From NCBI GenBank assembly GCA_001784285.1, contig MFQC01000011.1, forward strand, positions 67,640 to 131,639: a DNA stretch of 64,000 nt. Direction: 5' to 3'. Numbering within the stretch: the first letter of the stretch is position 1; the number at the start of each line of letters is the position of its first letter. This document shows, piece after piece, positions 1,219-62,021 of the stretch. The notes under the pieces were generated by a model that was given only the letters and a program-made list of their open reading frames with translations, did no database searches and was not told the DNA's origin. Source of the DNA: Candidatus Magasanikbacteria bacterium RIFCSPHIGHO2_02_FULL_48_18 (lineage in GTDB: Bacteria; Patescibacteriota; Patescibacteriia; Magasanikbacterales; UBA922). A program made the translations under genes and the position numbers.

Positions 1219-1220
1219 TT

Positions 1221-2357: not shown

Positions 2358-2362
2358 TTCTT

Positions 2363-4255: not shown

Positions 4256-4286
4256 TCATGCGGACAGCGCCATGCAAAAAACATGT

Positions 4287-5228: not shown

Positions 5229-5230
5229 GC

Positions 5231-6739: not shown

Positions 6740-6764
6740 CGCGCCTCCCATTGTAAAACCTCCT

Positions 6765-7556: not shown

Positions 7557-7610
7557 CTTTTGAAAGAACGCATGAAAAATCTTTCTTTGTAAAATATAAT
7601 ATAATATTTT

Positions 7611-8615: not shown

Positions 8616-8622
8616 CCATATT

Positions 8623-10218: not shown

Positions 10219-10249
10219 TCCTTATTCCTAATTTTTACGTACATACCGT

Positions 10250-11158: not shown

Positions 11159-11163
11159 CACCT

Positions 11164-11913: not shown

Positions 11914-11926
11914 GCGAATATTTCGT

Positions 11927-12600
11927 ATGCAATTACTTTCAATCATCATACCGGTATTCAACGAAAAAAAACCATTAAAGAACTTATACGCCGTGTGGAA
12001 GAAGTTGACTTCCCACTAGCAAAAAAAGAAATCATCATCGTGGATGATGGATCAACTGATGGAACACTGGAGCTATTAAAACAAGACATAGCACAGACAC
12101 ACACGGTCATTCCCCATATAAAAAATCAAGGAAAAGGAGCGGCGATTAGAAGTGGACTGCGTGCAGCCCATGGCGATTTCTTTATCATTCAAGATGCTGA
12201 CTTAGAATACAATCCAAAAGATATCGTCCCTTTACTTCAGGTGCTTCTGGATGGACCGCATGAAATCGCCTTCGGCTCTCGTGCATTGGGCATGGTTGAT
12301 ACAAAACAATATGAATCGTCCATCTTTTATCTTGGCGGCAAACTAGTGACATGGTGGACAAATTTTCTTTACAAGACGCATCTCACGGACCAGGCAACAT
12401 GTTATAAAATGTTTACTAAAAAAGTTCTCGAATCTATCCACCTCACATGCGCTGGATTTGAATTTTGCGCTGAATTTACTGGCAAAGCTTTAAACGCTCA
12501 ATACACAATCCATGAAGTGCCTATATCCTACAAACCGCGAGGGAAAAAAGATGGCAAAAAAATTAAACTAAAAGATAGCCATACTTGTCCCCCTTTCTTT
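11927..12600 (+). pseudogene. GT2 polyprenyl-phosphate sugar synthase-like gene inactivated by a -1 frameshift in an A8 homopolymer
   Basis: ATG 11927 gives MQLLSIIIPVFNEKK then runs out of frame at A8 (11964..11971); the -1 frame continues TIKELIRRVEEVDF..., colinear with the intact paralogue 14651..15349. Confidence 0.6.
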
Positions 12601-13290
12601 CTCTATATACCGCATACGGCTCTTGGGTCGCAATATTGGGGCATTGTGGCCCTTGGACACGCAACGCATAGAGCATTCCTTCAACCATTTGCAGTCCTCC
12701 TTTTTTATTTTCTCTTTACTTTCCGAGACCAAACAAAATACCTAGCCATTGCCTTCTTTGATTTTGGATTGGTCAGCGCGCTCTATCCAACCCAAGCGTA
12801 GTATCTCGTTCTTATCAGCCTTGTTTGTTTTGTATGGTTCTACAAATTTCAGGCCCATGCCTGGAAGAAAGCTTTTCTTTTTGGCGTCAGTTTTGTTGTC
12901 GGGGCTCTTCCTTCCGTGGTGCCCAATCTTACTGTCGGACTCAATATTGATCCGCTGTCATCCTCTCTTGTCGCCAAATTCAACGAAGCGTTGCGTTACC
13001 GATTCAGTTATACTTTTTATCCGGAGAGCCTTTTTATCCATGACCGCTCCCCGCAAGACTTTATTTCTTGGTACGATCGGCTTCGCGCCCAGGAAGAGGC
13101 CTACCAGAAAAATGATTTTATGCTTTTGTCCGGTCTTTCCCATGAACGTCATACGGCTATTGTGATAGAACAAAAAAAATGGAGCGCCCCCATACCCCCA
13201 TCGCTCATATGGCATCAAAATCCAGACTATATCGTGGCCAAACCGGCTCTCCGGAAAGACAACGCCGAGCAGGAACCCGAGAGTTGAGAA
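12600..13290 (+). pseudogene. decayed remnant of the GT-C-like membrane protein gene, fused in frame to the GT2 pseudogene, with internal deletion and frameshifts
   Basis: SQYWGIVALGHATHRAFLQPF... follows GT2 residues KIKLKD in one ORF; LNIDPL..FNEALRYRFSYTFYP and WYDRLRAQEEAY blocks appear in two other frames; about 200 codons of the 8623 paralogue are missing. Confidence 0.55.
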
Positions 13291-13348
13291 AAAAACATAA
13301 TTTGGGTATACTGGAACAGTTCTTATCTTAATAATCCCTCCGCCCTGT

Positions 13349-14287
13349 ATGCTTCACCCTGCCTTTGAAGAAATCGCATGCAATATTTGTGGCCAACAGA
13401 AGACAAAAATTATTTATCCAAGCACCCTGCCCCAAGACTTGTCTCTTGCAGTGACCGAACGTTTTGCTCCCGCAGACCATGCAAAAGGCAACGATCAAAT
13501 CGTGCAATGCCTCAACTGCGGTTTGGCGTACGCAAATCCGCGCATGAAAGCCGACTACATTTGGCAAGGGTATAGCGACGCCGTTGATACGAAGTATGTC
13601 ACTCAGGCGGAAGAGCGAATGAGGACCTTCAAACGGACCATACGCATTATTGAACAATACCAACCACAAAAAGGAAAGCTATTGGACATCGGGTGTGCCG
13701 CCGGTTTTTTTTTGAAGGTGGCAAAAGACGCAGGATGGAATGTCCAAGGCGTTGAACCAAACAAAGGACTCGCAACATTCGGCGCCGCGCGATATGACGT
13801 TCCCATTCTTTCAAAGAATTTCCTCTCGTCCGAACTGGAAGCATCCGCATACGATGTCGTCACTTTTTGGGATGTCCTGGAACATGTTCCGGACCCATCC
13901 GCCTATATCCGTGAATCGCACCGAATCCTCAAACCCGGCGGCTTTCTCTTTTTGAATTTTCCTGATTTTGGTTCGCGTCTTGCTCAATGGAGCGGACAAA
14001 AATGGTGGTTTTTGTCTCCCGTGCATATTTATTACTTTAATCGTCAAACCATCAGCGCGTTGCTCCAAAAAGAAAAATTCGCCGTACAAAAAATCAACAT
14101 GCATTGGCAAACCCTTTCGTTGGGATATCTTTTTGGAAAATTTGCCGATTATAACCGGTTCATTTCAAAAACGGGCGTCGCCCTTTCCAAAATGCTCGGC
14201 ATGTATCGGCTTCCTGTTCGATACTACGCAAGCCAGGCTATGGCAATCGCTCAAAAACCGCATACATCGTATGACAAAACTCATTAA
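13349..14287 (+). CDS. zinc-ribbon plus class I SAM-dependent methyltransferase (paralogue of 10250..11158)
   Basis: CNICGQ...CLNCGLAYANP; LLDIGCAAGFFLKVAKD; colinear with 10250..11158. Confidence 0.7.
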   Translation: MLHPAFEEIACNICGQQKTKIIYPSTLPQDLSLAVTERFAPADHAKGNDQIVQCLNCGLAYANPRMKADYIWQGYSDAVDTKYVTQAEERMRTFKRTIRIIEQYQPQKGKLLDIGCAAGFFLKVAKDAGWNVQGVEPNKGLATFGAARYDVPILSKNFLSSELEASAYDVVTFWDVLEHVPDPSAYIRESHRILKPGGFLFLNFPDFGSRLAQWSGQKWWFLSPVHIYYFNRQTISALLQKEKFAVQKINMHWQTLSLGYLFGKFADYNRFISKTGVALSKMLGMYRLPVRYYASQAMAIAQKPHTSYDKTH

Positions 14288-14639
14288 TATCGGCATTATC
14301 CTCGTGAATGTTGCCCTGGCCGTGAGCGGCCAGGTTGCTATTAAAATAGGGATGAAGCAGATCGGCTATATCACCTCAGGAAATACCCTCTCTCTTATTC
14401 TGAAATCATTTTCCAATTGGTATGTTCTTTTTGGACTGGGAGCGTACGCGTTGGCCGCAGTGACATGGATTGTCGTACTCTCCCGGGTGGAGCTGAGTTA
14501 TGCCTATCCTCTGTTGAGTCTGGGATATGTCGCTATTGTGCTTATATCCATACTCTTTCTCAAAGAACCGCTCAGCATTTTTCGTCTTCTCGGCACCGCC
14601 CTCATTATTGCCGGGGTGGTTCTTATTTTCAAAAGCTGA
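14271..14639 (+). CDS. small 4-TM DMT/SMR-like membrane protein (ArnE/ArnF/GtrA-like lipid-linked sugar flippase subunit)
   Basis: 122 aa, four hydrophobic helices (IGIILVNVALAVSGQVAIKIG...LIIAGVVLIF); ATG 14271 overlaps the upstream stop by 17 nt. Confidence 0.6.
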   Translation: MTKLINIGIILVNVALAVSGQVAIKIGMKQIGYITSGNTLSLILKSFSNWYVLFGLGAYALAAVTWIVVLSRVELSYAYPLLSLGYVAIVLISILFLKEPLSIFRLLGTALIIAGVVLIFKS

Positions 14640-14650
14640 GCCATGATGGT

Positions 14651-15349
14651 ATGCCAACACTCTCCATTATTATACCGGTATACAACGAACGGCACACGAT
14701 CCTTCCCCTTCTCAAACGGGTTGAATCGGTTGATTTCAAAGATGTGCGCAAAGAAATTATTATCGTGGATGACGGTTCCACAGACGGCACCACAGAACTC
14801 CTCCAGCAACATATTGTGCCAAGACACATAGTGCTTTTTCATGAAAACAATAAGGGCAAAGGGACGGCAATCCGGACAGGGTTGAAAAAAGCGACCGGGG
14901 ATTTCCTTGTGGTCCAGGATGCGGATCTTGAATATGAGCCGCATGATCTTCTTTTCCTCCTTGCGGCCATGGAAGAAAAACAACACCCCGTCGTTTTTGG
15001 ATCGCGAGCGCTCGGTAAAAACAAAACATATTCGTCGTATATCTTTCATATAGGGGGAAAAATGGTCACGTGGTGGACAAATGTTCTGTTTGGCACATCG
15101 CTGACCGATGAAGCAACATGCTATAAAATGTTTACCAGACCCGTCCTCAATGCCATCACGCTTACTTGCACGGGATTTGAATTTTGTCCGGAATTCACCG
15201 CAAAAGTACTGAATGCCGGATATGCCATCCACGAAGTGCCAATTTCGTATATGCCTCGAGGAAAAAAAGAAGGAAAAAAAATAAAAGTCAAGGATGGACT
15301 CACCGCATTCTGGACGCTTCTTACATTGCGGCTCACGCGCACGATATGA
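14651..15349 (+). CDS. GT2 polyprenyl-phosphate sugar synthase-like glycosyltransferase (DPM1/GtrB-like, soluble form)
   Basis: LSIIIPVYNE...IIVDDGSTDGT...VVQDADLEYEP; intact paralogue of the pseudogene at 11927. Confidence 0.75.
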   Translation: MPTLSIIIPVYNERHTILPLLKRVESVDFKDVRKEIIIVDDGSTDGTTELLQQHIVPRHIVLFHENNKGKGTAIRTGLKKATGDFLVVQDADLEYEPHDLLFLLAAMEEKQHPVVFGSRALGKNKTYSSYIFHIGGKMVTWWTNVLFGTSLTDEATCYKMFTRPVLNAITLTCTGFEFCPEFTAKVLNAGYAIHEVPISYMPRGKKEGKKIKVKDGLTAFWTLLTLRLTRTI

Positions 15350-16791
15350 TCTCACCAACGTTTGACACACCCTCATTTGCAAAGCAAACCGGAAGCGCCG
15401 CTATTTTTGGCGCCGGCCCGACAGGGCTTTCCACGGCATGGCGACTGGCAAAACATGGATGGAAAGTGACGCTCATAGAAAAAGAAAAAGAACTCGGCGG
15501 CCATGGCGGGACGCATACCATTCACGGCTATGACGTGGATAACGGACCCCACAAATTGTACCCCCAAGTTCCTTGCGCCAAACCATTTATTGATCATTTT
15601 GTCGGAAAAGATTTGCTGACCATGTCAAAAAAAAGCAGTGTCTATGTGCGGGAAACGTATATTCCTTTTCCTTTTGGATTGGGCGATTTATTCCATGGAC
15701 TCGGCCTTATGACCGGCCTTCGATGCGGAATAGGATATGGCCTGGGAAAAATAGAACGTGTATTTCGCGGAAGCCCATCCACATATACTGACTTTGTCAT
15801 TGCCCAGTATGGCCGGTACGCGCATGAATTGGTATTTCGGCAAGTGGCAGAAAAACTGTGGGGGGATCCCGACACGCTCCACGTCCAACTTGCAAAAACA
15901 CGCATCATTGCGCCAAACGTGTGGGAACTCATCGGCCAATTGCTTTTTAGGACGCGAAATAAGCCCAAATTGAGCGCTGACGAATTTTATTATCCACGGC
16001 ATGGATTGCGCCAACTATGGGAATCGGTGGGAACAGAAATCGAAACGCATGGAGGAACCATTATTCGAGAAACAAAGCCAACCCATATACTATCCAACAA
16101 AACTGGAGGATTTGAGGTAACATACCAAGGAAACGACACAGAACACACAATACAGTCGGATGTGATTATTTCGACAATTCCACTCAAGGCCGCTCTTCAT
16201 CTTTTGGATCCTGCCCCCCCTTCTCAAATCACGGACGCCATGAACCATCTCGCCTACAGTTCTCTCCTGGTTGTCTACCTCGTGGTTGACACCCCGCGGC
16301 TTCTGCCCGTCAATTGGATTTTTTTTCCAGAAAAAAATCTCCACTTTGCTCGGCTTTCAGAACAAAAAGGATTCAGCGAAACCATGGTGCCAAAAGATAA
16401 AACGGTCCTCATGGTTGAAATTCCGCTCGCCAGGCCCGCCATTGCCTCCATGGACCGCGAATGCCTCATTGCTGAAGCCATCGAGCAATTGCGCCGTGTC
16501 GGCATTCTCAAACCAATTCACCATATTGTGGATATGTTTACAGGATATAATGATTCGATTTATCCGATTTATGATACACAGTCTCTCGGCCGTCTGGAGA
16601 CGATTCTTTCATGGACAGACAACATACCAAATTTCTATCTCAATGGACGGCTGGGGTTGTTCTGCTACAATAATATGGACCATAGCATGGAAATGGGGTT
16701 AGCTCTTGGCGACCATATCGCCTCGCAACAACCCGCTCCTGCCTGGATACAAACGAGAAAAAGCTTCTACGACTATAAAATAGTCGACTAA
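15346..16791 (+). CDS. FAD/NAD(P)-binding oxidoreductase (amine-oxidase / protoporphyrinogen-oxidase-like fold)
   Basis: Rossmann dinucleotide motif AIFGAGPTGLSTAWRLAK...LIEKEKELGG; its ATG overlaps the GT2 TGA (ATGA). Confidence 0.7.
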   Translation: MISPTFDTPSFAKQTGSAAIFGAGPTGLSTAWRLAKHGWKVTLIEKEKELGGHGGTHTIHGYDVDNGPHKLYPQVPCAKPFIDHFVGKDLLTMSKKSSVYVRETYIPFPFGLGDLFHGLGLMTGLRCGIGYGLGKIERVFRGSPSTYTDFVIAQYGRYAHELVFRQVAEKLWGDPDTLHVQLAKTRIIAPNVWELIGQLLFRTRNKPKLSADEFYYPRHGLRQLWESVGTEIETHGGTIIRETKPTHILSNKTGGFEVTYQGNDTEHTIQSDVIISTIPLKAALHLLDPAPPSQITDAMNHLAYSSLLVVYLVVDTPRLLPVNWIFFPEKNLHFARLSEQKGFSETMVPKDKTVLMVEIPLARPAIASMDRECLIAEAIEQLRRVGILKPIHHIVDMFTGYNDSIYPIYDTQSLGRLETILSWTDNIPNFYLNGRLGLFCYNNMDHSMEMGLALGDHIASQQPAPAWIQTRKSFYDYKIVD

Positions 16792-16819
16792 TCTCAAATG
16801 GTGTACGAGTGATCTCCCT

Positions 16820-17944
16820 ATGCGTCCCATTATTTGTTTTACATCCTTTGCCGCCTACCCCCTGTTTCATCCGGAATATGTCGCGCCGCATGGGGGCGCA
16901 GAGGTGGAGCTTTTTTTTCTTGCAAAAAAATTCGCGGAGAAAAAAAATACGGTGCATATGGTTGTCGGCGATCTGGGACAGCCAAAAATAGAAACAGTAG
17001 AAAACGTCCGCCTTTGGCGAGGGATCCCCATACAGCAATCCACTGTACTTTTCGGTATCATGCGAACGCTGTCTCTCTTCCGAACATGGAAAGACATAAA
17101 CGCGGATATATACCTGGTAAAGGGCGCCGGGTGGATAACGTTCCAATTAGCTCTCTTTTGTACGCTCTACAAAAAAAAATATATTATGAAAACATCGCAT
17201 AAAAAAAATATAGACCTCTCGCTGAAGAAAAAGCCGTACCATGCTTTTTATCGCTGGGCGCTCACGCGCGCGGACGCGGTCATCGTTCAAAATAAAGAAG
17301 ACATCGGCATCATACAACAAAATTATCATATCGCCGCAAAAGTCATCAAAAATTATCATCCCATTCCTCCGCCAAGAAAACCGGCGTCTCCGGGGACGCC
17401 CCTCATGCTTGTCTGGGTCGGCAGGATAACCTCCATCAAACGCCCGCATCTTTTTCTCGATTTGGCCAAAAAATTTCCCGAGCATGTGTTCCGTATGATT
17501 GGATTTATTTCCGACACCGCTTTATGGCAAAAAATAAAAAAAGAATCCGAACGCATACCCAATCTTACTATTATAACAAACGAGCCGCATCATAAAATGG
17601 ATCAACACTACCAACAAGCAAGTCTGCTCGTCAGCACATCTTCTCTCGAAGGATTCCCAAATACGTTTATTGAAGCTATGAAATGGGGCGTGCCGATAGC
17701 TTCTTTGTCTGTCAACCCGGACCAATGCATTACCAAACATGCTCTTGGCATTGTCGGAAATGATGACCTTGAATACTTCGCAAATCAGCTCAAAACATTG
17801 ATTGAAAACCCAAAAATGATACATCAATACGGCAAAAACGCATATCACTACGCATCAAAAGAATTTGGAGAAAACATTATTCACCAATGGAATGATCTCT
17901 TTGGCGCGACCACCAAAAATTATCCCACGGTTCATACAATATAA
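16820..17944 (+). CDS. glycosyltransferase family 4
   Basis: GRITSIKRPHLF...SSLEGFPNTFIEAMKWGVPIAS. Confidence 0.75.
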   Translation: MRPIICFTSFAAYPLFHPEYVAPHGGAEVELFFLAKKFAEKKNTVHMVVGDLGQPKIETVENVRLWRGIPIQQSTVLFGIMRTLSLFRTWKDINADIYLVKGAGWITFQLALFCTLYKKKYIMKTSHKKNIDLSLKKKPYHAFYRWALTRADAVIVQNKEDIGIIQQNYHIAAKVIKNYHPIPPPRKPASPGTPLMLVWVGRITSIKRPHLFLDLAKKFPEHVFRMIGFISDTALWQKIKKESERIPNLTIITNEPHHKMDQHYQQASLLVSTSSLEGFPNTFIEAMKWGVPIASLSVNPDQCITKHALGIVGNDDLEYFANQLKTLIENPKMIHQYGKNAYHYASKEFGENIIHQWNDLFGATTKNYPTVHTI

Positions 17945-17969
17945 CTATTCTTATCTTGTGAGCATCTCT

Positions 17970-18698
17970 ATGAGTTGGTATACTGCCCGGCTTCATCCAA
18001 AAATATATGAGCCGTCCTATTTAACTCGAAAACAAATCAAAAATGCGATCCAAAAATTTATCCATACAGAAATTGGATCAAAAAAGGAATATACCATTGT
18101 CGACCTTGGTTGCGGTGACGCCCCGTACAAATCCTTATTTCACAACTATGCAAAATACATTGGCGTGGATATTGAAGCGTATACGGACGTCGACATAGTC
18201 GCAAAAATGTGGGACATTCCTCTTCCGGACAATTCCGTCGATTTTTTGTTAAGCACCGAGGTAATAGAGCATTCGGAAAAACCAAAAGAAACTATCGCGG
18301 AAATATGCAGAATTTTGAAACCAGGCGGCAAAGCGCTTCTGACCATTCCATTTCTCTACCCCCTGCATGGCAGTGACGACCGATGGCGCTTTACCATCCA
18401 TGGACTTTCTCAACTCATGGGGGAAGAAAAAAAACATACATGTTCAATACGGCCCTCAAATGGATTCTTTATAACCTATGGCCAGCTCTTCAATGTGCTC
18501 CTCATGCATATTCCTTTTGGAAGATATTTTTATCCGATTTCTTTTCCCATAAATTGTGTCTCCCTTGCGAGTGACTGGCTTTTCAAACAAAGCGTGTTCA
18601 TCATGAGACCGTTTGTAACCAAAGAACAATTCTCTCAAATACGAAAAAGCCTTCTTGAATCGTTCCCGATTCGTTATATCGTCACCATAACCAAATAA
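17970..18698 (+). CDS. class I SAM-dependent methyltransferase
   Basis: IVDLGCGDAPY motif I, VDFLLSTEVIEH, ILKPGGKALLT. Confidence 0.65.
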   Translation: MSWYTARLHPKIYEPSYLTRKQIKNAIQKFIHTEIGSKKEYTIVDLGCGDAPYKSLFHNYAKYIGVDIEAYTDVDIVAKMWDIPLPDNSVDFLLSTEVIEHSEKPKETIAEICRILKPGGKALLTIPFLYPLHGSDDRWRFTIHGLSQLMGEEKKHTCSIRPSNGFFITYGQLFNVLLMHIPFGRYFYPISFPINCVSLASDWLFKQSVFIMRPFVTKEQFSQIRKSLLESFPIRYIVTITK

Positions 18699-18708
18699 AG
18701 GCAAGCCT

Positions 18709-19467
18709 TCATTTCTTTTTTCCAATAAACAGAAGATACGGAGATGTATATTTGTTTTCCCATCGGTGGCATCGAACCAGAAAAAAATTGCCCAACGATT
18801 GGCATGCCTGGAGTATGGTCAGGAAAATTCGCTTCCATCGTCCGTCTGCCTGGAGCATACCCAGATTGAAAACGCCGTAATACCCGCAGAATACCGGCTC
18901 AATGTCCGGACGGACAAAAAGCCTCGAAAAATGCGGGAGCGACATAATGGAAAGATTGTGTATATCCAAAAGACGGGGCGCAAAAAACTTCAACAGCGGC
19001 GTGTAGATGCCCCGAAGATTCGGGATCATCACAAGAAGAAATCCGTCCTTTTTCAGAAATGCCACATGCGCATCAATAACCGGCTCAAGATCGTTGAAAT
19101 GTTCAATAAAACCAAACGACATAACGACGTCAAATGTGTTGCTAAGCCGTGCTTGGAAACCCTTGTCAAAGACATCGGAAAAAAAGATGTGGTCTTCAGA
19201 GAAGCCTAACGCACGAATAATTTTTTGAGCCGTCGCCACTCCTTGCTGGGTATATTCCACTCCATATGGAATTGCAGAGTAGCGTTCGGCAAAACGAGCC
19301 AATTTTCTTCCGGGGGCGCACCCTATTTCAAAAACACGCCGTTTTGGCGTACCCAAAAAAAATTGATCACAAATCTGTTGAAAAATGGCATCCGCGGCAG
19401 AAGTGCGTTTAAAAAAACCGCGTTCTCTATGCCGTTCCTTATTAATATCCGCCCAATGGGCTTCCAT
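18709..19467 (-). CDS. class I SAM-dependent methyltransferase
   Basis: VFEIGCAPGRKLARF motif I, VVMSFGFIEHF, FLKKDGFLLVMIP; alternative starts at 19500 and 19524. Confidence 0.65.
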   Translation of the reverse strand: MEAHWADINKERHRERGFFKRTSAADAIFQQICDQFFLGTPKRRVFEIGCAPGRKLARFAERYSAIPYGVEYTQQGVATAQKIIRALGFSEDHIFFSDVFDKGFQARLSNTFDVVMSFGFIEHFNDLEPVIDAHVAFLKKDGFLLVMIPNLRGIYTPLLKFFAPRLLDIHNLSIMSLPHFSRLFVRPDIEPVFCGYYGVFNLGMLQADGRWKRIFLTILQACQSLGNFFLVRCHRWENKYTSPYLLFIGKKK

Positions 19468-19477
19468 TGAATCCGTA

Positions 19478-20797
19478 TCAATTGGATTGTGTATCTTCAT
19501 ACCGATAAAGAAAAATATTGACAATTTTGTATACCAAAAAAAGCACGAATGACACCAAGACGGTTGCGATGACAGAGCCGGTCACCCCATACCATGTGGA
19601 AAAAGCATACATGCACGCAACGTTGATTGCCCCGATACAAAATGTTATAGCCGTGGTAAACACGATTCCTTTTTTTCCTTCCGCGGCGACAATCCAAATA
19701 TCAATGAGATAAAACAAATTCAATATTGCGGCGAGACTAAACAAAAGAAGCCAATCCCATCGAAAAAGATACTCTTTCCCGAAAAGATAAAGAAAAAAAT
19801 AACCAAAAGCAACAATGCCGCCAAACAGCGGTACTGCCAAAACTTTGTTGAGTGTATTTATTTTTCGCACAATGTCTCGTTTTTTGGGCATGCGAGAAAC
19901 CATGGGGAAAAAAACATTATTAAATATGGTCAAAAATTGAGAGGCGAAGGTAAATGTCGCGGTATAATACGCCATGTACAACCCAACGGAAGATGCGCCA
20001 ACCGCATACGATACAATAATCCGATTGATATTTAAAAACAAAAAACCGGCAACACCGCCCAATGCCGCAAAAAAAGAATAAAAAATAATTTTTTTCAAAA
20101 TGCGAAAAGAAAAACGGCCAAAGGAAGAAAAAAAGGGAAAAAAAACCAAAAGACAAAATACCGCCAAACCGATGCTCAGACTTATGCTATACACAAAAAA
20201 AGAACGTATGTGAAAGAAAAAAAGGGAAAAAGTAATTACAGAAAATACCACTATGGCCTCACCGACGCGAGCGACAAGTTGTAATGTAAACCGGCGAAAA
20301 CCGCGTGTAAAGCCGTCAAAGACATTTTTCAACGCAAGCGGGATGGCATAGACAAAACCAAAAAAGAGAATTAACGGATCCACCTGAAGAAATACCGAGA
20401 GCGGCCGATAAAAAAAGAAAAAAAGAACACACACAGGCACAAGAGAGGCCAACGTGCTCGTCAATACAACGGTCATGATGCGCCCTTTTTCTTTTTCATC
20501 CCCTTCGTTTGCGATATATCGCACTGCCGCGGTATTAAAGCCGGGCGCCATCAAAAAAAGAAACAGATACCCGTAGCTCACAGCCAATCCTGCCTTGCCA
20601 TATTCGGCAGGACCGAGCATCCTCCCCATAAGAATACTCGTTCCAAACAAAAAAATGCCCGCAAGTCCGTTGCCGAGCGCAGACACAAAAATATCTTTGA
20701 AAAAAACAATTTTTGTCTCCCCTACTCTTTTTTTAAAGATGAAAAAATAGAAAAAATCAAGAAACCCAATCATTTTTTTTTCAAGAGAACGGAGCAT
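19478..20797 (-). CDS. MOP-superfamily polysaccharide flippase (Wzx / MATE-like)
   Basis: 440 aa with about 12-14 TM helices, typical oligosaccharide flippase architecture; alternative starts at 20773 and 20833 (TTG). Confidence 0.7.
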   Translation of the reverse strand: MLRSLEKKMIGFLDFFYFFIFKKRVGETKIVFFKDIFVSALGNGLAGIFLFGTSILMGRMLGPAEYGKAGLAVSYGYLFLFLMAPGFNTAAVRYIANEGDEKEKGRIMTVVLTSTLASLVPVCVLFFFFYRPLSVFLQVDPLILFFGFVYAIPLALKNVFDGFTRGFRRFTLQLVARVGEAIVVFSVITFSLFFFHIRSFFVYSISLSIGLAVFCLLVFFPFFSSFGRFSFRILKKIIFYSFFAALGGVAGFLFLNINRIIVSYAVGASSVGLYMAYYTATFTFASQFLTIFNNVFFPMVSRMPKKRDIVRKINTLNKVLAVPLFGGIVAFGYFFLYLFGKEYLFRWDWLLLFSLAAILNLFYLIDIWIVAAEGKKGIVFTTAITFCIGAINVACMYAFSTWYGVTGSVIATVLVSFVLFLVYKIVNIFLYRYEDTQSN

Positions 20798-20854
20798 ACC
20801 ACAACGCCATTTTGATTGAGAAGAGATGAACAAATACGCTTATCCACACGGTAT

Positions 20855-20970
20855 CCGCATGGAGCCCCACCCCGCTCAGCGGGGTGGTACCAGTTGTCAC
20901 CGCCCGGTGGGGCGGAATCCGCCTACCCACCAACTCCACGGCTAAAGCCGTGGTATCATTTGGCGGATGG
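20855..20970. repeat. copy 1 of a ~115-nt multi-hairpin repeated element (candidate small RNA or cis-regulatory leader)
   Basis: about 85% identical to 34160..34275 in the same orientation; hairpins CCACCCCGC/GCGGGGTGG, CCGCCC/GGGCGG, CCACGG(C)/(G)CCGTGG and outer TCCGCC/GGCGGA; differences between copies fall in loops or are compensatory. Confidence 0.5.
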
Positions 20971-20982
20971 AAAAGCACAAAA

Positions 20983-21792
20983 TTATATTTTTTTTCTTTG
21001 AAAGAGAAACCAATTGTTTGCGAGGCCGCTCGCGGATTTGATATTCACCAATTGAAAATCAGGAAAATGAGACCGCATAAATGTAAAGACTTCTTCGACG
21101 TTTGCATACTCGTATGGATACCCCCCCAACCAGTCGGTGACATCTCTCCGCCAGCTCATCCCGCGCTTTTTTTTGTACGTCATAATTTGTTTGATATAGG
21201 TTCCCAGACGAAAAAAATTCAATAGAAAACACAGGACAATATAGCCCGGTTCAATAACATATTTTCCAAAAAACGGATGCTTGTTGTAAAACTTTTTTAC
21301 ACCAAGCCAAAATCGGGAGCCCAAAACCCCGCCAATATTGTTGTACAAGGCAATGTAAAAAAAACCGCCCTCATTGACGAGATGCGCCGCGTTTTCTATA
21401 GCCTGCCACATATTGCCCGTATGATGAAGCACGCCCCACGAATAGACCAGATCAAACGTCCCAAGCGGGGAAAGAAAGGTCTTGTCCAATACCGACCCAT
21501 GGCACACGGTCCAATTGGACGGATTTCCTGCCTTCTGCTTCATATATTCGCCGCACTTCACTGAAAATGGGTCCACATCAAAACTGACAATCTCCTTTGC
21601 GCGCATCTGAAACATGACATATGAAAAAATACCGGATCCGCACCCAATATCCAATACGCGCTTGTCTTGAAAATGATCTACCCCCATAAAATTTTTTATG
21701 GAAGACGCCGCAATGGATATTTTTTCATCGGTCAATGTCTTGAGAAAGTGTTCCCAATTTTTTCCAAATGAAAATGTAATTTTGTCTGTCAT
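20983..21792 (-). CDS. class I SAM-dependent methyltransferase
   Basis: VLDIGCGSGIFS motif I; LVYSWGVLHH; 269 aa. Confidence 0.7.
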   Translation of the reverse strand: MTDKITFSFGKNWEHFLKTLTDEKISIAASSIKNFMGVDHFQDKRVLDIGCGSGIFSYVMFQMRAKEIVSFDVDPFSVKCGEYMKQKAGNPSNWTVCHGSVLDKTFLSPLGTFDLVYSWGVLHHTGNMWQAIENAAHLVNEGGFFYIALYNNIGGVLGSRFWLGVKKFYNKHPFFGKYVIEPGYIVLCFLLNFFRLGTYIKQIMTYKKKRGMSWRRDVTDWLGGYPYEYANVEEVFTFMRSHFPDFQLVNIKSASGLANNWFLFQRKKI

Positions 21793-21811: not shown

Positions 21812-22981
21812 TTATAATTCATTCTTCAATACTGCCCCGTGCTCCTCCCACGAAAAAGACTGCACAAAATTGGCAATCTCTGCGCCGGCGAGGGCGTGGC
21901 CGCGCTCATTCCAATGCCCATCAGAAAGCAAGTGCAATTCTTGGCCTGTTTTTTCGAAGGTATCTTTAAAAATAGGAAGAAGATCAAGATACGGAATATT
22001 ATTTTTTTGGGTCAATTCGCTCAGCATGGCGCTTGGTTTTTCAAAATCCCAACATTTTTTTTCCATGGCAGGATATTGTTCTTTCATAGCATGCAACGCT
22101 TCATCCCCATGAATCTGCGCGTAACTTGTCCCATGAACCAATACAAAATCCGCCCCCAGCTGAGCAACCTCATCATGCATCGCGCGAAGCAATTGTGTTG
22201 TGACATCCCATGCGGCGGCCCACTCATCGGAAAGCGCACACTCATAGACAAAATAATCCGTGGGAATATCCCCACGCACCAGATGCGATTGAAATATGGG
22301 AAGCTTTTTTGAATGCAAAATCACAAAGCGGTATAGATGAGAAACACGAAGAAAAAATTGATTGGCTCTGCGCCACAAATTTTCCGGAGGGGTTTCCGGA
22401 GGGACCATCTGCAGGCCGTTGGCATCGGAAATAAAATATGGCTTGTGCCTTTCTCCCTCCAGCGCAAACGCATTATTGCGCACATCATTTGCAGAGGTAA
22501 AGAGCACAATAACCACATCCGGTGAAAACTCCTTTACCACGTTTGACCATAACAGATACTCCTGAGCTGTTCCATACCCGCTCACTCCGAAGGAAAGCAC
22601 GTCATACGTTTGTGTCGGGTCATCTTCCTGGAGCGCCTCTTCGAGCACAGAAGAAAACATGGCCTCAGGAGAAACTTGAAATGCTTCCACATAGGAATCT
22701 CCCAAAACCGCGATCCGCCTAACTCCAGCGGGTTTCTCTCGCGGCGCATCCCACCCTCGAAAACCAAACTGATTTATCCGTATGGGAATAGTATTATTTT
22801 CTGCTCTCCATACCCCTTCTCGAAGAGGAATAAGGCGACTTCCGAGCGTTGGATCGTGCTCATAAAAATGGCCGCTCTGAGGAATACCAATGCGGAAAAT
22901 TACTTCAAGAACAAGCAAAAACAAAAAAAAACTCCCCAGGCTAACCATTGTATTTTGCACAAAAACTCGTCCGCGCATCAT
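21812..22981 (-). CDS. membrane-anchored SGNH/GDSL-family hydrolase (candidate glycan O-acetyl esterase/transferase, AlgJ/X-like)
   Basis: N-terminal signal-anchor helix, VLGDSY block, SDGHWNERGH C-terminal block (SGNH catalytic His region). Confidence 0.5.
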   Translation of the reverse strand: MMRGRVFVQNTMVSLGSFFLFLLVLEVIFRIGIPQSGHFYEHDPTLGSRLIPLREGVWRAENNTIPIRINQFGFRGWDAPREKPAGVRRIAVLGDSYVEAFQVSPEAMFSSVLEEALQEDDPTQTYDVLSFGVSGYGTAQEYLLWSNVVKEFSPDVVIVLFTSANDVRNNAFALEGERHKPYFISDANGLQMVPPETPPENLWRRANQFFLRVSHLYRFVILHSKKLPIFQSHLVRGDIPTDYFVYECALSDEWAAAWDVTTQLLRAMHDEVAQLGADFVLVHGTSYAQIHGDEALHAMKEQYPAMEKKCWDFEKPSAMLSELTQKNNIPYLDLLPIFKDTFEKTGQELHLLSDGHWNERGHALAGAEIANFVQSFSWEEHGAVLKNEL

Positions 22982-23016: not shown

Positions 23017-23961
23017 TCAATCCATCACGACATGTCGAAAGTAGGAGACCGTCTTCTCCAGTCCTTCTCGCAATGGCACCCTCGGCTCCCATCCAAAATA
23101 CTCCTTTGCCAACCCAATATCCGGCTTCCGTCGTTTTGGATCATCCTCAGGAAGCGGCTTGGAGACAATCGTACTCGTACTTTCCGGAATCAAAGACAAA
23201 ATCGTTTGTGCAAGCTGCGTCATAGAAAATTCTTCCGGATTGCCGATATTCACCGGCCCAATAAAATTGTCTGTATTATTCATCATGCGAATCATTCCTT
23301 CAACCAGGTCATCCACATATTGAAAACTCCTGGTTTGCGATCCGTCACCATAAATGGTAATTGGTTCGTTTTTCAACGCCTGCACAATAAAATTGGATAC
23401 GACCCTACCATCGTTTGGGTGCATGTTTGGTCCATAGGTATTAAAAATGCGAACAATACGAATGGGAACGTTATGCTGCCGGTGATAATCGACACACAGT
23501 GATTCGGCGCATCGTTTGCCCTCATCATAACACGAACGAATGCCGACCGGATTCACATTGCCCCAGTAGGTTTCTTTTTGAGGATGTTCCAGCGGGTCGC
23601 CATAGACTTCTGAGGTCGAAGCCTGCAAAAGGCAGGCATTCGTCTTTTTGGCCAACCCCAGCATATTGAGCGTGCCGATGACATTGGTTTTAATGGTTTT
23701 GACCGGGTTATATTGATAATGAATCGGAGACGCCGGACAAGCTAAATGGTATATTTGTTCAACTTCCGCCGAAAAATGAGTTGTGATGTCATGTTCAATA
23801 AGTTCAAAACGGCTATGTGCTTCCAAATCGGCAATATTTTCTCTTTTGCCCGTAAAAAAATTGTCGACACATAATACATGATGGCCGTCAAGAACCAAAC
23901 GATGGCACAGATGAGAACCAATAAATCCGGCCCCGCCCGTAACCAAAATGCGTTTTGACAT
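23017..23961 (-). CDS. UDP-glucuronate decarboxylase (UDP-xylose synthase), NAD-dependent epimerase/dehydratase family
   Basis: [29 protein letters not shown], near-collinear with UXS/ArnA C-terminal domain enzymes. Confidence 0.85.
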
Positions 23962-23973
23962 ACATTGCAATAA

Positions 23974-24960
23974 TCAATACTCTTCTTTTTCTGTTTCAAA
24001 GTTTATTTTTTGCTTTATGACATAGAGCGGCCTATTGGCCACTTCGTGATGAATTTGTCCAATATAGAGGGCAATAAACCCAAGACAGCTCAATACAATG
24101 CCGATTAAAAACATATTGAGGACAGCAAGCTGTGCCGTACCCGTAAAATCAAGCGACCAGCGGTGAAAAAGATACTGGGTCGCAAAAATAAATATGCCCA
24201 AAAGCCCGGAAAATACCGTGATGCCCATGCCAAGATACCCGGCGATTTTTAACGGAAACAAACTGTAGGCGGCAAACGTATCCATTGCCAAACTCCATCG
24301 TTTTTTGCCTGCGTATGTCGCTTTCCCAATTTTTCTCCCCGGATTGATAAACGGAACATACACGGTTGGAAATCCAAGCCAATCAATAAGGCCACGGGTC
24401 ATGCGGTCGTGCTCGGTGAATTTCTTGAATTCAAGAACGACCGCCCGGTCGAGCAGGCGAAAATCCGTGGCATTCGGAACAAACTCGCCGGATCGATCCG
24501 CAATGCGGGCCATCAGCGAATAAAAAATCCACGAACTGAAACGGGTAAAAAATGGCCGCTCATTTTTGTTCTCCCGCACGCCAACCACAATTTTTGCTCC
24601 ACTTCTCCAATGATCCAAAAAAGAAGGAATATATTCCGGCGGATGCTCAAAATCCGCGTCCATGACGAGACACGCGTCGCCTGAGGCGGCGATAATGCCA
24701 GCGGTGGTTGCCATTTCTTTTCCAAAATTTCGGGTAAAGGTTATCACGCGAACATTCGGATCACGGGTTGCCAATCGAGACAGTATTTCGGGCGAACGAT
24801 CGGTGCTTCCGTCATCCACAAAAATAAACTCAGGTGCGATGTGCTCCAATGGCGCTAGCGTAACCGACGCCACGACCTGTATGATCCGATCATACAAATT
24901 TTCAATGGCATGTTCTTCATTGAAAACCGGAATAATGAGAGAAACAACGGGTCTCGGCAT
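23974..24960 (-). CDS. ArnC/GtrB/DPM1-like GT2 polyprenyl-phosphate glycosyltransferase with two C-terminal TM helices
   Basis: VSLIIPVFNEE...FVDDGSTDRS...VMDADFEHPP plus a C-terminal hydrophobic pair (LFPLKIAGYLGMGITVF... / MFLIGIVLSCLGFIALYIG). Confidence 0.8.
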   Translation of the reverse strand: MPRPVVSLIIPVFNEEHAIENLYDRIIQVVASVTLAPLEHIAPEFIFVDDGSTDRSPEILSRLATRDPNVRVITFTRNFGKEMATTAGIIAASGDACLVMDADFEHPPEYIPSFLDHWRSGAKIVVGVRENKNERPFFTRFSSWIFYSLMARIADRSGEFVPNATDFRLLDRAVVLEFKKFTEHDRMTRGLIDWLGFPTVYVPFINPGRKIGKATYAGKKRWSLAMDTFAAYSLFPLKIAGYLGMGITVFSGLLGIFIFATQYLFHRWSLDFTGTAQLAVLNMFLIGIVLSCLGFIALYIGQIHHEVANRPLYVIKQKINFETEKEEY

Positions 24961-29154: not shown

Positions 29155-30477
29155 TCACGATGAAAGGTACTGCGTAATCGCCCCCGCTAACCGTTCATAC
29201 GTATCTTTCCGTTTCGCGTCGTCGCGCTCGAGTGTGGTCAATCGAAACCCATAATGCGGCGAATAAAATCCGGTTGCCGGAACGACGCAAATACCGGTCG
29301 CTCCCAAAAGATAGTAGGTAAACCGCTGATCCAACGGAAAATCCGAACGATTGACCGCTGACTCGATAAACGTTCGCACCGCGTCGTTTTCAATTGGAAG
29401 CGTTTGCCGATTGTTCAATACGCCTTCTTCAAACAGCGGCATCATATAAAATGCGCCATCCGTGCGATTGACCCGCATGCCCGGCACGCGAGAGAGTGTT
29501 TCCGCGATAAAATTGCCGTTTTTTTCAAGCTCCTGATTGTAGCCTGCAATCCATGCGGAAAATTCGGGATGGTCATACACGGCCCGAACAATAAATTGCG
29601 GCAAACTGGTCGAGCAGACTTCCATAAGAATGCGTTGCCGCAACGCGTCAGCATACGCGCGATATTCAGAATCAAGATCAATATCGTGAAATTCAATCCA
29701 TCCGCACCGTCCGCCGGGCCACGGGAGATCTTTGGACAGTCCCCGCAACACCACAAGAGGCACCCGGCCCGCGGCAATGTCCACAATATGCGTATGATGT
29801 TTGCCGTTGTACACCATCCGAAAATACACCTCGTCAGAAATGATGAATAAATTATATTTTTGCGCAAGAAGGACAATCTGCTCCAGCGTTTCTTTTTCAT
29901 ACACCGCGCCGGTTGGGTTGTTTGGGTTAATCAAAAGAATCGCGCCAACATCCGGATGCGCCACAATTTGCTGTTCGAGGTGTGCCATGTCCGGTTGCCA
30001 TCCATTGCGCGGATCAAGATGATAAGAAATTGGATCTTGTTTTTGAAAAAATGATTCCATGGATGAATGGGTGGGGTAACTTGGCGCCGGCTGTACCACA
30101 CGAAACCCTTGCGGTAGCATTTCATACACAAGCGCAATTGCCGATCCAAGGCCGCTCGTGAACAAGACGTATTCATAATCCAAGTTGGAGGAAGGACACA
30201 TTTTTTTTGCATGATCCACCACCCACTTGCGCACATCCGGCAATCCGCGAGAATGAGAATAGCCAAACACCTTGTCGCCCGGCCGCTGAATTTCTTGCAC
30301 AATGGCCTCTTTAAGAAAGGGAGGAACGGTCCAGCTTTTTGCGATTGGATCTCCGATATTTTCCATGACAAAAAATTTGGCAGGGTCAATCTCTTTCAAT
30401 TTTTGCACGACATCCACAATCTCACGAATTTGATATTTCAAAAAATGAACCTCCGGGTTATTGAGTGGCTGTCTCAT
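29155..30477 (-). CDS. pyridoxal-phosphate-dependent aminotransferase, class I/II (alanine/aspartate aminotransferase-like)
   Basis: 440 aa; NPNNPTGAVY; LSKDLPWPGGRCGW PLP-lysine region. Confidence 0.8.
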   Translation of the reverse strand: MRQPLNNPEVHFLKYQIREIVDVVQKLKEIDPAKFFVMENIGDPIAKSWTVPPFLKEAIVQEIQRPGDKVFGYSHSRGLPDVRKWVVDHAKKMCPSSNLDYEYVLFTSGLGSAIALVYEMLPQGFRVVQPAPSYPTHSSMESFFQKQDPISYHLDPRNGWQPDMAHLEQQIVAHPDVGAILLINPNNPTGAVYEKETLEQIVLLAQKYNLFIISDEVYFRMVYNGKHHTHIVDIAAGRVPLVVLRGLSKDLPWPGGRCGWIEFHDIDLDSEYRAYADALRQRILMEVCSTSLPQFIVRAVYDHPEFSAWIAGYNQELEKNGNFIAETLSRVPGMRVNRTDGAFYMMPLFEEGVLNNRQTLPIENDAVRTFIESAVNRSDFPLDQRFTYYLLGATGICVVPATGFYSPHYGFRLTTLERDDAKRKDTYERLAGAITQYLSS

Positions 30478-32114
30478 ACCGCGTAAAAAACAAAAAATAA
30501 CATGCAGGCCAAGTAACCGTAAAAAAAATAAAATAACAAACGCTCTTCAAATGGTTTTCTCAAGAGCGCCCAATAAAAAAGAACGGCAAAAAGAAAACAA
30601 AATCCTACGCCCCATAGGGTACCAATAAATAACGACGAAAGCAACACGCCAAGCGCGATAAAGATCCCGATGATTCTTTTTCCTCTCTCCAAGCCAAAGA
30701 GGACAGGAATGGTGATAATCCCCGCGCTTTTATCCCCTGCCACGTCTTTGATATCTTTTACATGAACCGCCAGGACAAGGATCCCAAAGAGGAGCCAAAA
30801 AACCGATGCCGGAAAAATGCGAAGGCGTTGCACCGGTGAAACCGCAAAAAATCCGGCAAGCACCGCAACGACGCCATTAAACGCCACAAACACATTATTC
30901 AATAAAAAATATTTTTTTATGCGAAATGGCGGCGAAGAATAGAGATAATAAACCACTTGAAACACCAATGAAAAAATAAAAAACAGATAATTGATAAGAA
31001 GCGACCCCGCGACCAAAAAACCAAATAATCCCCACGTAATCCATTGCTGTTCCATCTTTGTTATCTGGCCCGAAACAAAAGGACGATCCGGGTTCGCAAT
31101 TCTGTCGGTGTCATAATCGGCAATATCATTAATGCCAACCGCAACCCAAAAGTTTATGGCCATAAGAAAGAAAACCATCGCAATCGCCATGATATCAATA
31201 CCATTCCATGAAACACGATGAAACAGAAGAGCGGCAATCACGATACCCGTGCCTGTCCATCCTATATAATAGACAATTCTCTCCAGACGAAGATTGGTCT
31301 TCCACACGGCAAAGAGCCGCGGGCGCACCAAGCGACACACCACCGCCGCCTGTATGAAAAAAACAATCCACCACACACGGGCAAAAAATATATTAAACTG
31401 GTGTTCAAAGAGCAAGACAGCATCGAGAGGAAGCGGAGACGGCGTATGAATGGTGGAGAGCAGACTTGAAGCAAACCACGAGTGAAGAACATCCGATACA
31501 TCGGAAAACACAGAAACATCGCCAAACACAAGCGCGATAATACTGGGAAAAGAAAAATATAAAAAAAAGACGCCATACACCGACAATATCGCGGCCGCCA
31601 CGCGCCACAAACGGTTGGAAAACACCCACGCCAAAAAACCCACGCACAAAAGCACCACGACGACTTCGATGCGGATGCCGAGGGTAATTCCCGGTTCAAA
31701 CCACGGGCCAAAAAAAGTAAAAAAACTTCGAACCAATTCCGGCCCGGTTTGAAACAGGTACGCCTGGCCCCACCCTCTCCCGGCCGTATACAGCAAATCA
31801 ATCCAGGGCGGCAAGAGAATAAGCGGAAAAAGAAAAACCCATGCTTTGAGCAACAGGGGAAGCGCGATCCTGGTATAGGCGTGAACCGCCAAAATCAACG
31901 AAAAAGAAATCGCCAGATAAAAAAGCGGATAATGAAGAAAGGTGGTGAGCCACGACGTATACATGCCGGACGCATGAGGACTGGAATAATTTTCAAAAAA
32001 AACGCGCAAAAATATCACACCGGCGATAGATCCAATATATTGGAGAGGGACCACGCGGACGCGCTCAAGATAACGAACAAAAACAAAAAATCTTTGCCAC
32101 ATATTTTGAAACAT
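30474..32114 (-). CDS. UbiA-family polyprenyl-phosphate transferase fused to a large N-terminal polytopic membrane domain
   Basis: C-terminal half contains NDIADYDTDRIANPDRPFVSG (first Asp-rich UbiA motif) and KDIKDVAGD (second); N-terminal ~270 aa hydrophobic domain; ATGA overlap with the aminotransferase start. Confidence 0.65.
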   Translation of the reverse strand: MFQNMWQRFFVFVRYLERVRVVPLQYIGSIAGVIFLRVFFENYSSPHASGMYTSWLTTFLHYPLFYLAISFSLILAVHAYTRIALPLLLKAWVFLFPLILLPPWIDLLYTAGRGWGQAYLFQTGPELVRSFFTFFGPWFEPGITLGIRIEVVVVLLCVGFLAWVFSNRLWRVAAAILSVYGVFFLYFSFPSIIALVFGDVSVFSDVSDVLHSWFASSLLSTIHTPSPLPLDAVLLFEHQFNIFFARVWWIVFFIQAAVVCRLVRPRLFAVWKTNLRLERIVYYIGWTGTGIVIAALLFHRVSWNGIDIMAIAMVFFLMAINFWVAVGINDIADYDTDRIANPDRPFVSGQITKMEQQWITWGLFGFLVAGSLLINYLFFIFSLVFQVVYYLYSSPPFRIKKYFLLNNVFVAFNGVVAVLAGFFAVSPVQRLRIFPASVFWLLFGILVLAVHVKDIKDVAGDKSAGIITIPVLFGLERGKRIIGIFIALGVLLSSLFIGTLWGVGFCFLFAVLFYWALLRKPFEERLLFYFFYGYLACMLFFVFYAV

Positions 32115-56373: not shown

Positions 56374-56476
56374 GATGTTTTGAACTATTGCTCTCAGTAT
56401 AGCATAAAAAAAATAAAGAGTGAATAAACTCACTCTCTCTTTTCCATGCTTTCCATTGCCGACGAATTGCCTCTAT

Positions 56477-62019: not shown

Positions 62020-62021
62020 AG

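Follow-up and report, generated by a model that had tools for sequence, protein, structure and literature searches.

Which sugar does a bacterium load onto its lipid carrier when the gene for a polyprenyl-phosphate glycosyltransferase lies directly beside a gene for UDP-xylose synthesis? The question is raised by a 64,000-nt stretch of DNA (hereafter the window; assembly GCA_001784285.1, contig MFQC01000011.1, positions 67,640 to 131,639) from Candidatus Magasanikbacteria, an uncultured groundwater bacterium of the candidate phyla radiation (CPR, Patescibacteria). Here, a gene for a family 2 glycosyltransferase (GT2) is followed by one for a UDP-glucuronate decarboxylase (UDP-xylose synthase, UXS). 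Serotype conversion, polymyxin resistance and the assembly of the mycobacterial wall all depend on lipid-linked donors such as undecaprenyl phosphate (Und-P) carrying glucose (Glc), N-acetylglucosamine (GlcNAc) or aminoarabinose (Ara4N), and decaprenyl-phosphate arabinofuranose (Araf). Our leading reading, which we hold tentatively, is that the GT2 of the window uses UDP-xylose and thereby makes polyprenyl-phosphate xylose. If this is true, a donor not yet described in bacteria would bring a new sugar to the short list of lipid-linked monosaccharides, and the decoration of CPR/Patescibacteria envelopes, which have hardly been studied, would gain a first point of access. The parts of the locus are of known kinds, and a xylose donor would vary the three-component glycosylation theme; if the two genes are merely co-located, the locus is an ordinary surface-polysaccharide island.

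The UXS and glycosyltransferase genes

The 314-aa product of the UXS gene (23017..23961, minus strand, ATG start) aligns over residues 5-313 with human UXS1 (PDB 4gll/2b69; E 6e-127, 427 bits, identity ~58%), whereas the best match to any other short-chain dehydrogenase/reductase (SDR) reaches only 150 bits. The motifs of the human enzyme for nucleotide binding and catalysis are conserved in a set of 18 residues (not given here) and in YDEGKR, whose roles, those of an NAD-binding GxxGxxG and a catalytic (S/T)-E ... YxxxK, we take from the human enzyme. The closest database relatives (70-74% identity) come from CPR bacteria and Bacteroides and carry the name UDP-glucuronate decarboxylase. By sequence, the product is a canonical UXS, neither an epimerase nor an ArnA-type decarboxylase. 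The initial annotation, made without database searches, had likewise read a UDP-glucuronate decarboxylase here and had named grouping with UDP-glucose 4-epimerases as the outcome that would speak against it; the two scores point away from such a grouping.

The GT2 gene (23974..24960, minus strand) encodes a 328-aa protein that matches PF00535 at 1e-31 and carries two C-terminal hydrophobic helices (residues 243-261 and 278-296), so that a GT2 with C-terminal transmembrane (TM) helices, as first annotated, is indeed present. Its recorded start is the ATG at 24960; a TTG start (24981) was considered and dropped, an exact-protein look-up having returned nothing. Among proteins of known structure, it scores 190 bits with GtrB of Synechocystis (sll0501), 99 bits with ArnC and 66 bits with dolichyl-phosphate mannose synthase (DPMS), and the alignment of its residues 13-324 to GtrB 28-328 covers the full length. 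The best NCBIfam models are PgfS (NF047588), at 197.5 bits against a cut-off of 500, and ArnC (PRK10714), at 114.5 bits against a cut-off of 529.

The catalytic site points in the same direction. Asp157 of GtrB is replaced by Met in ArnC and by Gly in DPMS (PMC12690121), and this position is Asp in the GT2 of the window and in all 155 aligned homologues. GtrB D157 corresponds to the D of NATDFRL, and R122, one of the basic residues that bind Und-P in GtrB, corresponds to the R of GVRENK; the Mg-binding Gln of GtrB is Q98 (PMC12698845). The DxD motif of the cytoplasmic GT-A domain is the DAD of DADFEH (residues 101-106; 24643..24660, minus strand). Within this motif, the position of the Mg ligand Gln98, which reads DADLQx in GtrB, ArnC and DPMS, is Glu in the window protein and Gln in the other 154 homologues examined; we rejected this substitution as a marker of xylose use because it is seen in the window protein alone. 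Given the end-to-end alignment score with GtrB, the far lower score with ArnC and the Asp at the D157 position, the protein is classified from its sequence as a GtrB-class (GtrB/PgfS-type) polyprenyl-phosphate glycosyltransferase and not as an ArnC orthologue, and its earlier designation as ArnC-type was imprecise.

The two genes are co-oriented and 12 nt apart (GT2 stop to UXS ATG), at the coordinates originally given; because both lie on the minus strand, GT2 is transcribed before UXS. In transcription order, the minus-strand genes are rpsL, rpsG, fusA, GT2, UXS, a gene for an SGNH/AlgX-like protein, a methyltransferase gene, a Wzx-like flippase gene and another methyltransferase gene, with 55 nt between the end of fusA and GT2 and 35 nt between UXS and the next gene. 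No convincing terminator was seen around GT2-UXS in a pattern scan, and co-transcription with the str operon (rpsL-rpsG-fusA) is therefore likely. The neighbors of the GT2 gene are thus fusA, UXS and the SGNH gene; neither a GtrA-type flippase gene nor a GtrC-type gene for a GT-C glycosyltransferase adjoins it. The protein sequence of the GT2 is identical on 21 groundwater metagenome contigs, including GCA_001783045.1 (MFQL01000005.1), annotated as Candidatus Magasanikbacteria.

A possible route to lipid-linked xylose

In the route that we envisage, UXS would convert UDP-glucuronate into UDP-xylose, and the GT2 would transfer the xylose to undecaprenyl phosphate at the cytoplasmic face of the membrane. 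The polyprenyl-phosphate xylose would then be flipped, either by an ArnE/F-like protein with four TM helices or by a flippase of the MOP (multidrug/oligosaccharidyl-lipid/polysaccharide) class, and a GT-C-fold enzyme such as that encoded at 5231..6739 could use it outside the membrane, yielding a decorated surface glycan or protein. The GT2-UXS pair itself would be a stripped-down copy of a recurrent, uncharacterized cassette in which a MOP flippase and a GtrB-like GT2 are joined by a second glycosyltransferase, either GT2b or GT4, and in some cases by an HpnJ-like radical S-adenosylmethionine (SAM) enzyme, UXS and UDP-glucose dehydrogenase (UGD). There are precedents in which a nucleotide-sugar enzyme encoded beside a polyprenyl-phosphate glycosyltransferase defines the sugar, namely PgfE/PgfS (PMC12041528), ArnA/ArnC (PMC12690121) and the mycobacterial lipid donor of methylthio-xylofuranose (MTX) made by Rv0539 (PMC12088412).

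The presence of a GT-C-fold protein and an ArnE/F-like protein in the same glycan island of ~30 kb (in the window, positions 1-25000, with the GT2-UXS pair at its edge) counts for this route. The former is a 502-aa polytopic membrane protein (5231..6739, plus strand), whose relatives number 11 among 1.8 billion representatives. An AlphaFold model built on these relatives (pLDDT 86.3, pTM 0.88) gave 22 best PDB matches in Foldseek, all of which are GT-C enzymes (STT3, AglB, PglB, AftB, DPY19, AftA, ArnT and ALG9), with E-values down to 1.8e-5, a query-length-normalized TM-score (TMq) of 0.34-0.56 and a probability of 1.00; beyond them, the list falls to unrelated transporters of low probability. 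The model thus indicates that this protein, a candidate glycosyltransferase, has a GT-C membrane fold. G46-D47, directly after TM1, is invariant and H50 and R52 are nearly so; these residues may lie in the first extracytoplasmic loop and act in catalysis. At the level of sequence, no Pfam or NCBIfam match was found even at E 10, no PDB match was found with the family profile, and no ArnT/PMT_2/GT83/GT39 signature was evident.

The initial annotation had listed three such GT-C-like proteins and had held that the absence of any GT-C signature from them would speak against a lipid-linked route. The first has the fold, as described above. The second, a polytopic protein with a C-terminal DUF6798 domain (PF20604; 8623..10218, plus strand), has four homologues, an alignment too shallow for a good model (pLDDT 51), and gave no fold match; hhalign placed its relationship to the 5231..6739 family at a probability of 2%. 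No third was found: the 723-aa product of 57667..59838 was rejected as a single-pass protein whose sequence is secreted and rich in beta structure, and 12592..13245 proved to be what is left of a decayed piece of the DUF6798 gene.

The candidate lipid-sugar flippase (14271..14639, plus strand) is a small EamA/SMR-type protein with four TM helices (EamA, 2.6e-7), whose best matches are ArnF (57.9 bits, cut-off 99) and ArnE (37.6 bits, cut-off 92), both below cut-off. An ArnE/F-like protein, as listed in the initial annotation, is thus present in the window.

Linkage of UXS to GtrB-like genes in related loci

We compared 80 genome and 80 metagenome loci that had been fetched by alignment to the GT2 family alone and searched them for UXS by tblastn at an identity of at least 50%. 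UXS lay within 10 kb of the GtrB-like homologue in 10 of the 160 loci. The two genes are directly adjacent in L098, L136 and L149, separated by 370 nt in L148 and by 3.7 kb in L130, and separated by one gene in L025, L096, L116, L139 and L155; two further cases, L087 and L089, were found from the UXS side. The order GT2-UXS is shared by the window, L087, L136 and L148, and the order UXS-GT2 by L098 and L149. UXS is often placed inside the cassette, as flippase-UXS-GT2 in L098 and as GT2-flippase-UXS in L116, L139 and L155, and UGD accompanies UXS in L096, L116 and L149, which gives self-contained sets of UGD, UXS, GT2 and flippase. As this frequency is well above chance for a single-copy gene, it argues that UXS, when present, is a member of the cassette. 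The UGD gene beside UXS in L096 (5070..7760) carries an intein; its open reading frame (ORF) is 896 aa long, and the models of the N- and C-terminal splicing regions score above cut-off.

The cassette itself is recurrent. Among 163 loci, the MOP flippase-like gene was counted in 54, the second GT2 gene (GT2b) in 22 and the HpnJ-like B12 radical SAM gene in 17, and a variant with a conserved GT4 gene instead was matched by tblastn in 24 loci, not counting the two used as queries. Cassette-bearing loci (including L007, L087, L089, L091, L093, L096, L098, L130, L133, L139, L142, L144, L157, L160, L171 and L172) belong to CPR bacteria and some Proteobacteria. Cassettes of CPR bacteria often follow tsf (L087, L098), and the GT2 gene of the window follows fusA; the cassettes of L171 and L172 additionally contain a ferredoxin gene and a second radical SAM gene. 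SDR genes near the closest GT2 relatives (L171, L089) were considered as UXS or ArnA and rejected, being of generic dehydratase or GalE types. The combination of flippase, GT2 and second glycosyltransferase appears to be undescribed in the literature searched, and a search on Patescibacteria envelopes and UXS returned nothing relevant. With its radical SAM gene, the cassette offers a concrete, testable four-gene target that could be expressed in E. coli.

Which sugar is loaded?

Several observations weigh against the use of UDP-xylose by the window GT2. UXS is a facultative neighbor of this GT2 family: in 94% of the related loci, the 10 kb on either side contain none. This also holds for the closest relatives of the GT2 (L171 and L172, 52-53% identity), where the cassette is complete and accompanied by a GT-C_AftD gene. 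Clustering of the GtrB-like homologues left the UXS-linked members scattered, and the idea of a UXS-linked clade was rejected on that ground. Nor did we find a sequence rule for the donor sugar of the GT2: no alignment column separates UXS-linked from other homologues, and the search for a marker residue gave no sharp discriminator, the differences following the split between CPR bacteria and Proteobacteria. The supply of substrate is a further point, because tblastn found no UGD in the 64-kb window and the annotation of the adjoining 7.6 kb on the left lists none, and a homology search of the window likewise failed to find a cassette-type flippase, a second cassette glycosyltransferase (GT2b or GT4) or the radical SAM gene. 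Moreover, no report of polyprenyl-, undecaprenyl- or dolichyl-phosphate xylose was found in the literature searched. UXS linkage was commoner in loci with a second GT2 or a radical SAM gene (5/21 versus 5/139; Fisher p 0.004), and a conserved GT4 gene follows the GT2 gene in other variants of the cassette. Because UXS linkage tracks the presence of a second glycosyltransferase, it could be this enzyme, and not a GT2 of the window type, that uses UDP-xylose.

A comparison with the syntenic island L174 (GCA_040960375.1) cuts both ways. L174 has, in the same order, AsnB, GT4s, the GT-C gene, the DUF6798 gene, a soluble GT2 gene, a mutase-like gene, the Wzx-like flippase gene and the SGNH gene, followed by a carbamoyltransferase gene; within the 21.6 kb retrieved, there is neither a GT2-UXS pair nor an ArnE/F-like gene. 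It is therefore with the soluble GT2 gene, and not with the GT2-UXS pair, that the GT-C and DUF6798 genes are syntenic. Since L174 keeps the other island glycosyltransferases without the pair, the comparison suggests that the GT-C enzyme goes with the soluble GT2 and that the pair is a separate unit and not the sugar-supply gene of the island; the latter point favors the xylose reading. No homologues of the polytopic proteins, the ArnE/F-like gene, the mutase-like gene or the UbiA fusion of the window (see below) were found in the 164 related loci.

These data bear on a rival reading, mere co-location, which we regard as quite possible. UXS would then feed a soluble GT4 or GT2 that builds a heavily methylated polysaccharide exported by the Wzx-like flippase, and the GtrB-like GT2 would load Glc, GlcNAc or galactose (Gal) on undecaprenyl phosphate, as in GtrB, CsbB and PgfS. 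The island is rich in possible users of UDP-xylose, with at least five GT4s, at least two further GT2s, the Wzx-like flippase and seven methyltransferases. Members of the GT2 family occur throughout the Patescibacteria at ~50% identity, as would suit a single common donor, and the characterized relatives that match best use UDP-Glc (GtrB) or UDP-GalNAc (PgfS). The proximity of UXS to 6% of the homologues and to none of the closest, and its correlation with a second glycosyltransferase, fit co-location as well. However, the same glycosyltransferases are present in L174 although the 21.6 kb retrieved contain no UXS; UXS is repeatedly found between the flippase gene and the GtrB-like gene and not at cluster edges; and sets of UGD, UXS, GT2 and flippase occur without an intervening glycosyltransferase (L149, L116).

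The composition of the cassette raises another rival, in which an oligosaccharide is assembled on polyprenyl monophosphate in the archaeal style: the GtrB-like enzyme would add the first sugar, GT2b or GT4 would add a further one (xylose or some other), the radical SAM enzyme would modify the product, the MOP flippase would export it and a GT-C enzyme would transfer it. The pair in the window, which lacks GT2b and GT4, would then be either what remains of such a system or its minimal form. The usual substrates of MOP flippases are oligosaccharide-lipids. Cassettes of the form flippase-GT2-GT2b-radical SAM or flippase-GT2-GT4 recur across loci, the best structural matches of the GT-C protein are STT3, AglB and PglB, and the clusters of L171 and L172 close with a GT-C_AftD gene. 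GT2b also matches AglG, a glucosyl-dolichyl-phosphate glucuronosyltransferase, although weakly (33.7 bits; cut-off 440). The literature searched yielded no bacterial precedent at the biochemical level, and the cassette flippase, GT2b, GT4 and radical SAM genes are all missing from the window; we consider this assembly route unlikely for the locus. A related proposal retains xylose as the sugar: the widely distributed cassette might build a xylose-containing glycan on polyprenyl monophosphate, in the manner of archaeal dolichyl phosphate, for an STT3-like GT-C enzyme, with the GT2-UXS pair as the minimal form that makes polyprenyl-phosphate xylose. To this proposal, too, we assign a low probability.

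The GT2-UXS pair as a source of polyprenyl-phosphate xylose thus remains the reading that we tentatively prefer. The initial annotation had inferred a sugar linked to a lipid phosphate and used outside the membrane by GT-C enzymes. This general inference fits the island, which has three candidate synthases, the ArnE/F-like protein and the GT-C protein. The particular chain from UXS through GT2 to GT-C remains a proposal: UXS accompanies the GT2 in 10 of the 160 loci, the GT-C gene goes with the other GT2 in L174, and no UGD was found.

Other candidate branches of the glycan island

The plus-strand part of the island comprises the genes for a deacetylase, methyltransferases, GT4s, an AsnB-type amidotransferase, the two polytopic membrane proteins, GT2s, a TylF methyltransferase and a flavin (FAD) protein. 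All seven SAM-dependent methyltransferase genes, of which one is TylF-type, lie within 526..21792 of this single island, and their number suggests that the product is a heavily O-methylated glycan. Downstream of UXS, the next gene (21812..22981, minus strand; PF13472, PF16822) encodes an SGNH/AlgX-like hydrolase or acyltransferase that is probably membrane-anchored through one N-terminal TM helix, and the Wzx-like MOP flippase of the island (19478..20797, minus strand; PF01943/PF13440) has no BLAST similarity to the cassette flippases and is not of their type.

A second candidate polyprenyl-phosphate sugar synthase is the soluble DPMS/ArnC/AglJ-like GT2 encoded at 14651..15349 (plus strand), the second DPM1-like enzyme of the first annotation. 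Its best PDB matches, over the full length, are DPMS (5mlz, 61 bits) and ArnC (57 bits), and its top NCBIfam matches are AglJ, ArnC and PpgS. The following gene (15346..16791, plus strand) overlaps it by 4 nt and encodes an FAD protein of the PRK07208 family resembling eukaryote-type UDP-galactopyranose mutases (UGMs); residues 19-459 match the UGMs 4u8k/3ute/4dsg at E ~5e-17, and the residues that we take to be catalytic in UGMs appear conserved in the alignment. Together with the ArnE/F-like gene, these genes form a tight three-gene run (14271..16791) that looks like a candidate branch for a lipid-linked furanose donor.

A further candidate branch lies at the left edge of the window. The edge truncates a polysaccharide deacetylase gene of the NodB/DUF3473, XrtA type (PF11959, TIGR03006), whose 3' part is the deacetylase fragment previously recognized at 2..547 (plus strand), and the full gene (PF01522 and PF11959) is contained in L176. 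To the left of the window (L176, 5386..8185), genes for an SDR (309 aa), a PpgS-like GT2 (218 aa, 116.7 bits) and a DUF2304 small membrane protein precede it. By analogy, this run resembles the polyprenyl-P-GalNAc route of M. tuberculosis, PpgS/Rv3632/Rv3779 (PMC3485146), and may be a third lipid-sugar branch. The island thus holds three candidate polyprenyl-phosphate sugar synthases, and an extracytoplasmic lipid-linked-sugar toolkit is really there.

Such a toolkit recalls aminoarabinose modification, and a true Arn-type pathway would involve a 4-keto- or 4-amino-pentose that an ArnC orthologue loads and an ArnT orthologue transfers to lipid or glycan. ArnC is the second-best PDB and NCBIfam match of the GT2, and both an ArnE/F-like protein and a NodB-type deacetylase are present. 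However, the SDR, with its ~58% identity to human UXS1, is a UXS and not an ArnA-type decarboxylase, the ArnC and ArnF models score below their cut-offs (114.5 bits versus 529 and 57.9 versus 99), the GT2 has Asp where ArnC has Met (PMC12690121), the GT-C protein has no ArnT/PMT_2 sequence signature, and the deacetylase is of the XrtA/DUF3473 type and lies beside the PpgS-like GT2. Among the scanned window ORFs of at least 150 aa, no DegT-type aminotransferase or formyltransferase domain was found, in agreement with what had been noted originally for ArnB and ArnA; the aminotransferase at 29155..30477 belongs to class I/II. Every Arn-specific membership test failed, and none of the arnA, arnB, arnD and arnT domains was detected among the scanned window ORFs. 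We consider a genuine Arn pathway very improbable; the analogy is a loose one that holds at the level of logic only (a pentose from UDP-glucuronate (UDP-GlcA), a lipid carrier, a small flippase and a GT-C enzyme).

The island also contains a decayed segmental duplicate (11882..13348), in which a frameshifted GT2 gene is fused to fragments of the DUF6798 gene (11959..13245, plus strand, by tblastn and ORF structure). The GT2 part is 61% identical to 14651..15349, and the two DUF6798 fragments, with an internal deletion, are 52% and 29% identical to 8623..10218; the methyltransferase genes flanking the duplicate (10250..11158 and 13349..14287) are paralogues with 74% identity.

Other genes of the window

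Two further genes that the initial annotation had counted in the toolkit are present. The UbiA-family prenyltransferase (30474..32114), described there as a fusion acting on prenyl phosphate, has an extra N-terminal domain of ~290 aa and ~7 TM helices, followed by the class I/II aminotransferase gene; on one related contig (L005), it is split into two gene calls. Its best matches are prenyltransferases of the aromatic, geranylgeranylglyceryl phosphate (GGGP) and chlorophyll types and not phosphoribosyltransferases, and we rejected it as an analogue of the decaprenylphosphoryl-5-phosphoribose (DPPR) synthase. The PAP2 gene (45841..46395), described as an undecaprenyl-pyrophosphate (Und-PP) phosphatase gene, has only weak similarity to such phosphatases. 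Both are distant, housekeeping-type genes unrelated to the GT2-UXS pair. A second surface-glycan cluster (53770..63992) encodes a DUF4012 protein, three GT4s, an initiating phosphoglycosyl transferase (Bac_transf) and the 723-aa single-pass secreted protein, for which no matching family was found.

Comparison with known systems

Among known systems, the three-component Gtr systems (GtrB of Synechocystis sll0501 and of Shigella phages; streptococcal GtrB/PgtC2) share with the window the full-length similarity of the GT2 to GtrB (190 bits), a GT-A domain with two TM helices, the DxD motif and the D157 equivalent, as well as a small candidate flippase with four TM helices and a GT-C-fold protein in the same island. 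Unlike in Gtr systems, neither a GtrA-family gene nor a GT-C gene adjoins the GT2 gene, the candidate partners lying 9-18 kb away on the other strand; in addition, Gln98 is replaced by Glu, and UXS as an immediate neighbor is not seen in Gtr.

The Pgf operon of Streptococcus mutans (PgfS, the epimerase PgfE and the GT-C proteins PgfM1/PgfM2) likewise has a polyprenyl-phosphate glycosyltransferase gene beside that of an SDR nucleotide-sugar enzyme (PMC12041528). The window differs in that its GT2, at 197.5 bits, is far below the PgfS cut-off of 500, its SDR is a decarboxylase and not a 4-epimerase, and no YfhO-type GT-C gene is adjacent. With the Arn (PmrF/ArnC-ArnT) aminoarabinose pathway, the window shares a possible UDP-GlcA-derived pentose, a polyprenyl-phosphate GT2, flippase subunits with four TM helices and a GT-C transferase, whereas an ArnA-type oxidative decarboxylase, ArnB and the formyltransferase are absent from it, the Arn models score below cut-off and the catalytic residues are GtrB-like (PMC12690121).

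The mycobacterial donors belong to another phylum with another envelope, and the GT2 of the window, unlike their synthases, is of the GtrB type with its own TM helices. MTX is not known to be derived from UDP-xylose. Nevertheless, in both the GalNAc (PpgS/Rv3632/Rv3779) and the MTX (Rv0539, MtxS) systems, a GT2 makes a polyprenyl-phosphate monosaccharide that is used by a GT-C enzyme (PMC3485146, PMC12088412), much as we propose here, and a PpgS-like GT2 with a DUF2304 small membrane protein is encoded just to the left of the window. The MTX lipid donor demonstrates that a xylo-configured pentose can be lipid-linked and is the nearest known case to a xylose donor (PMC12088412).

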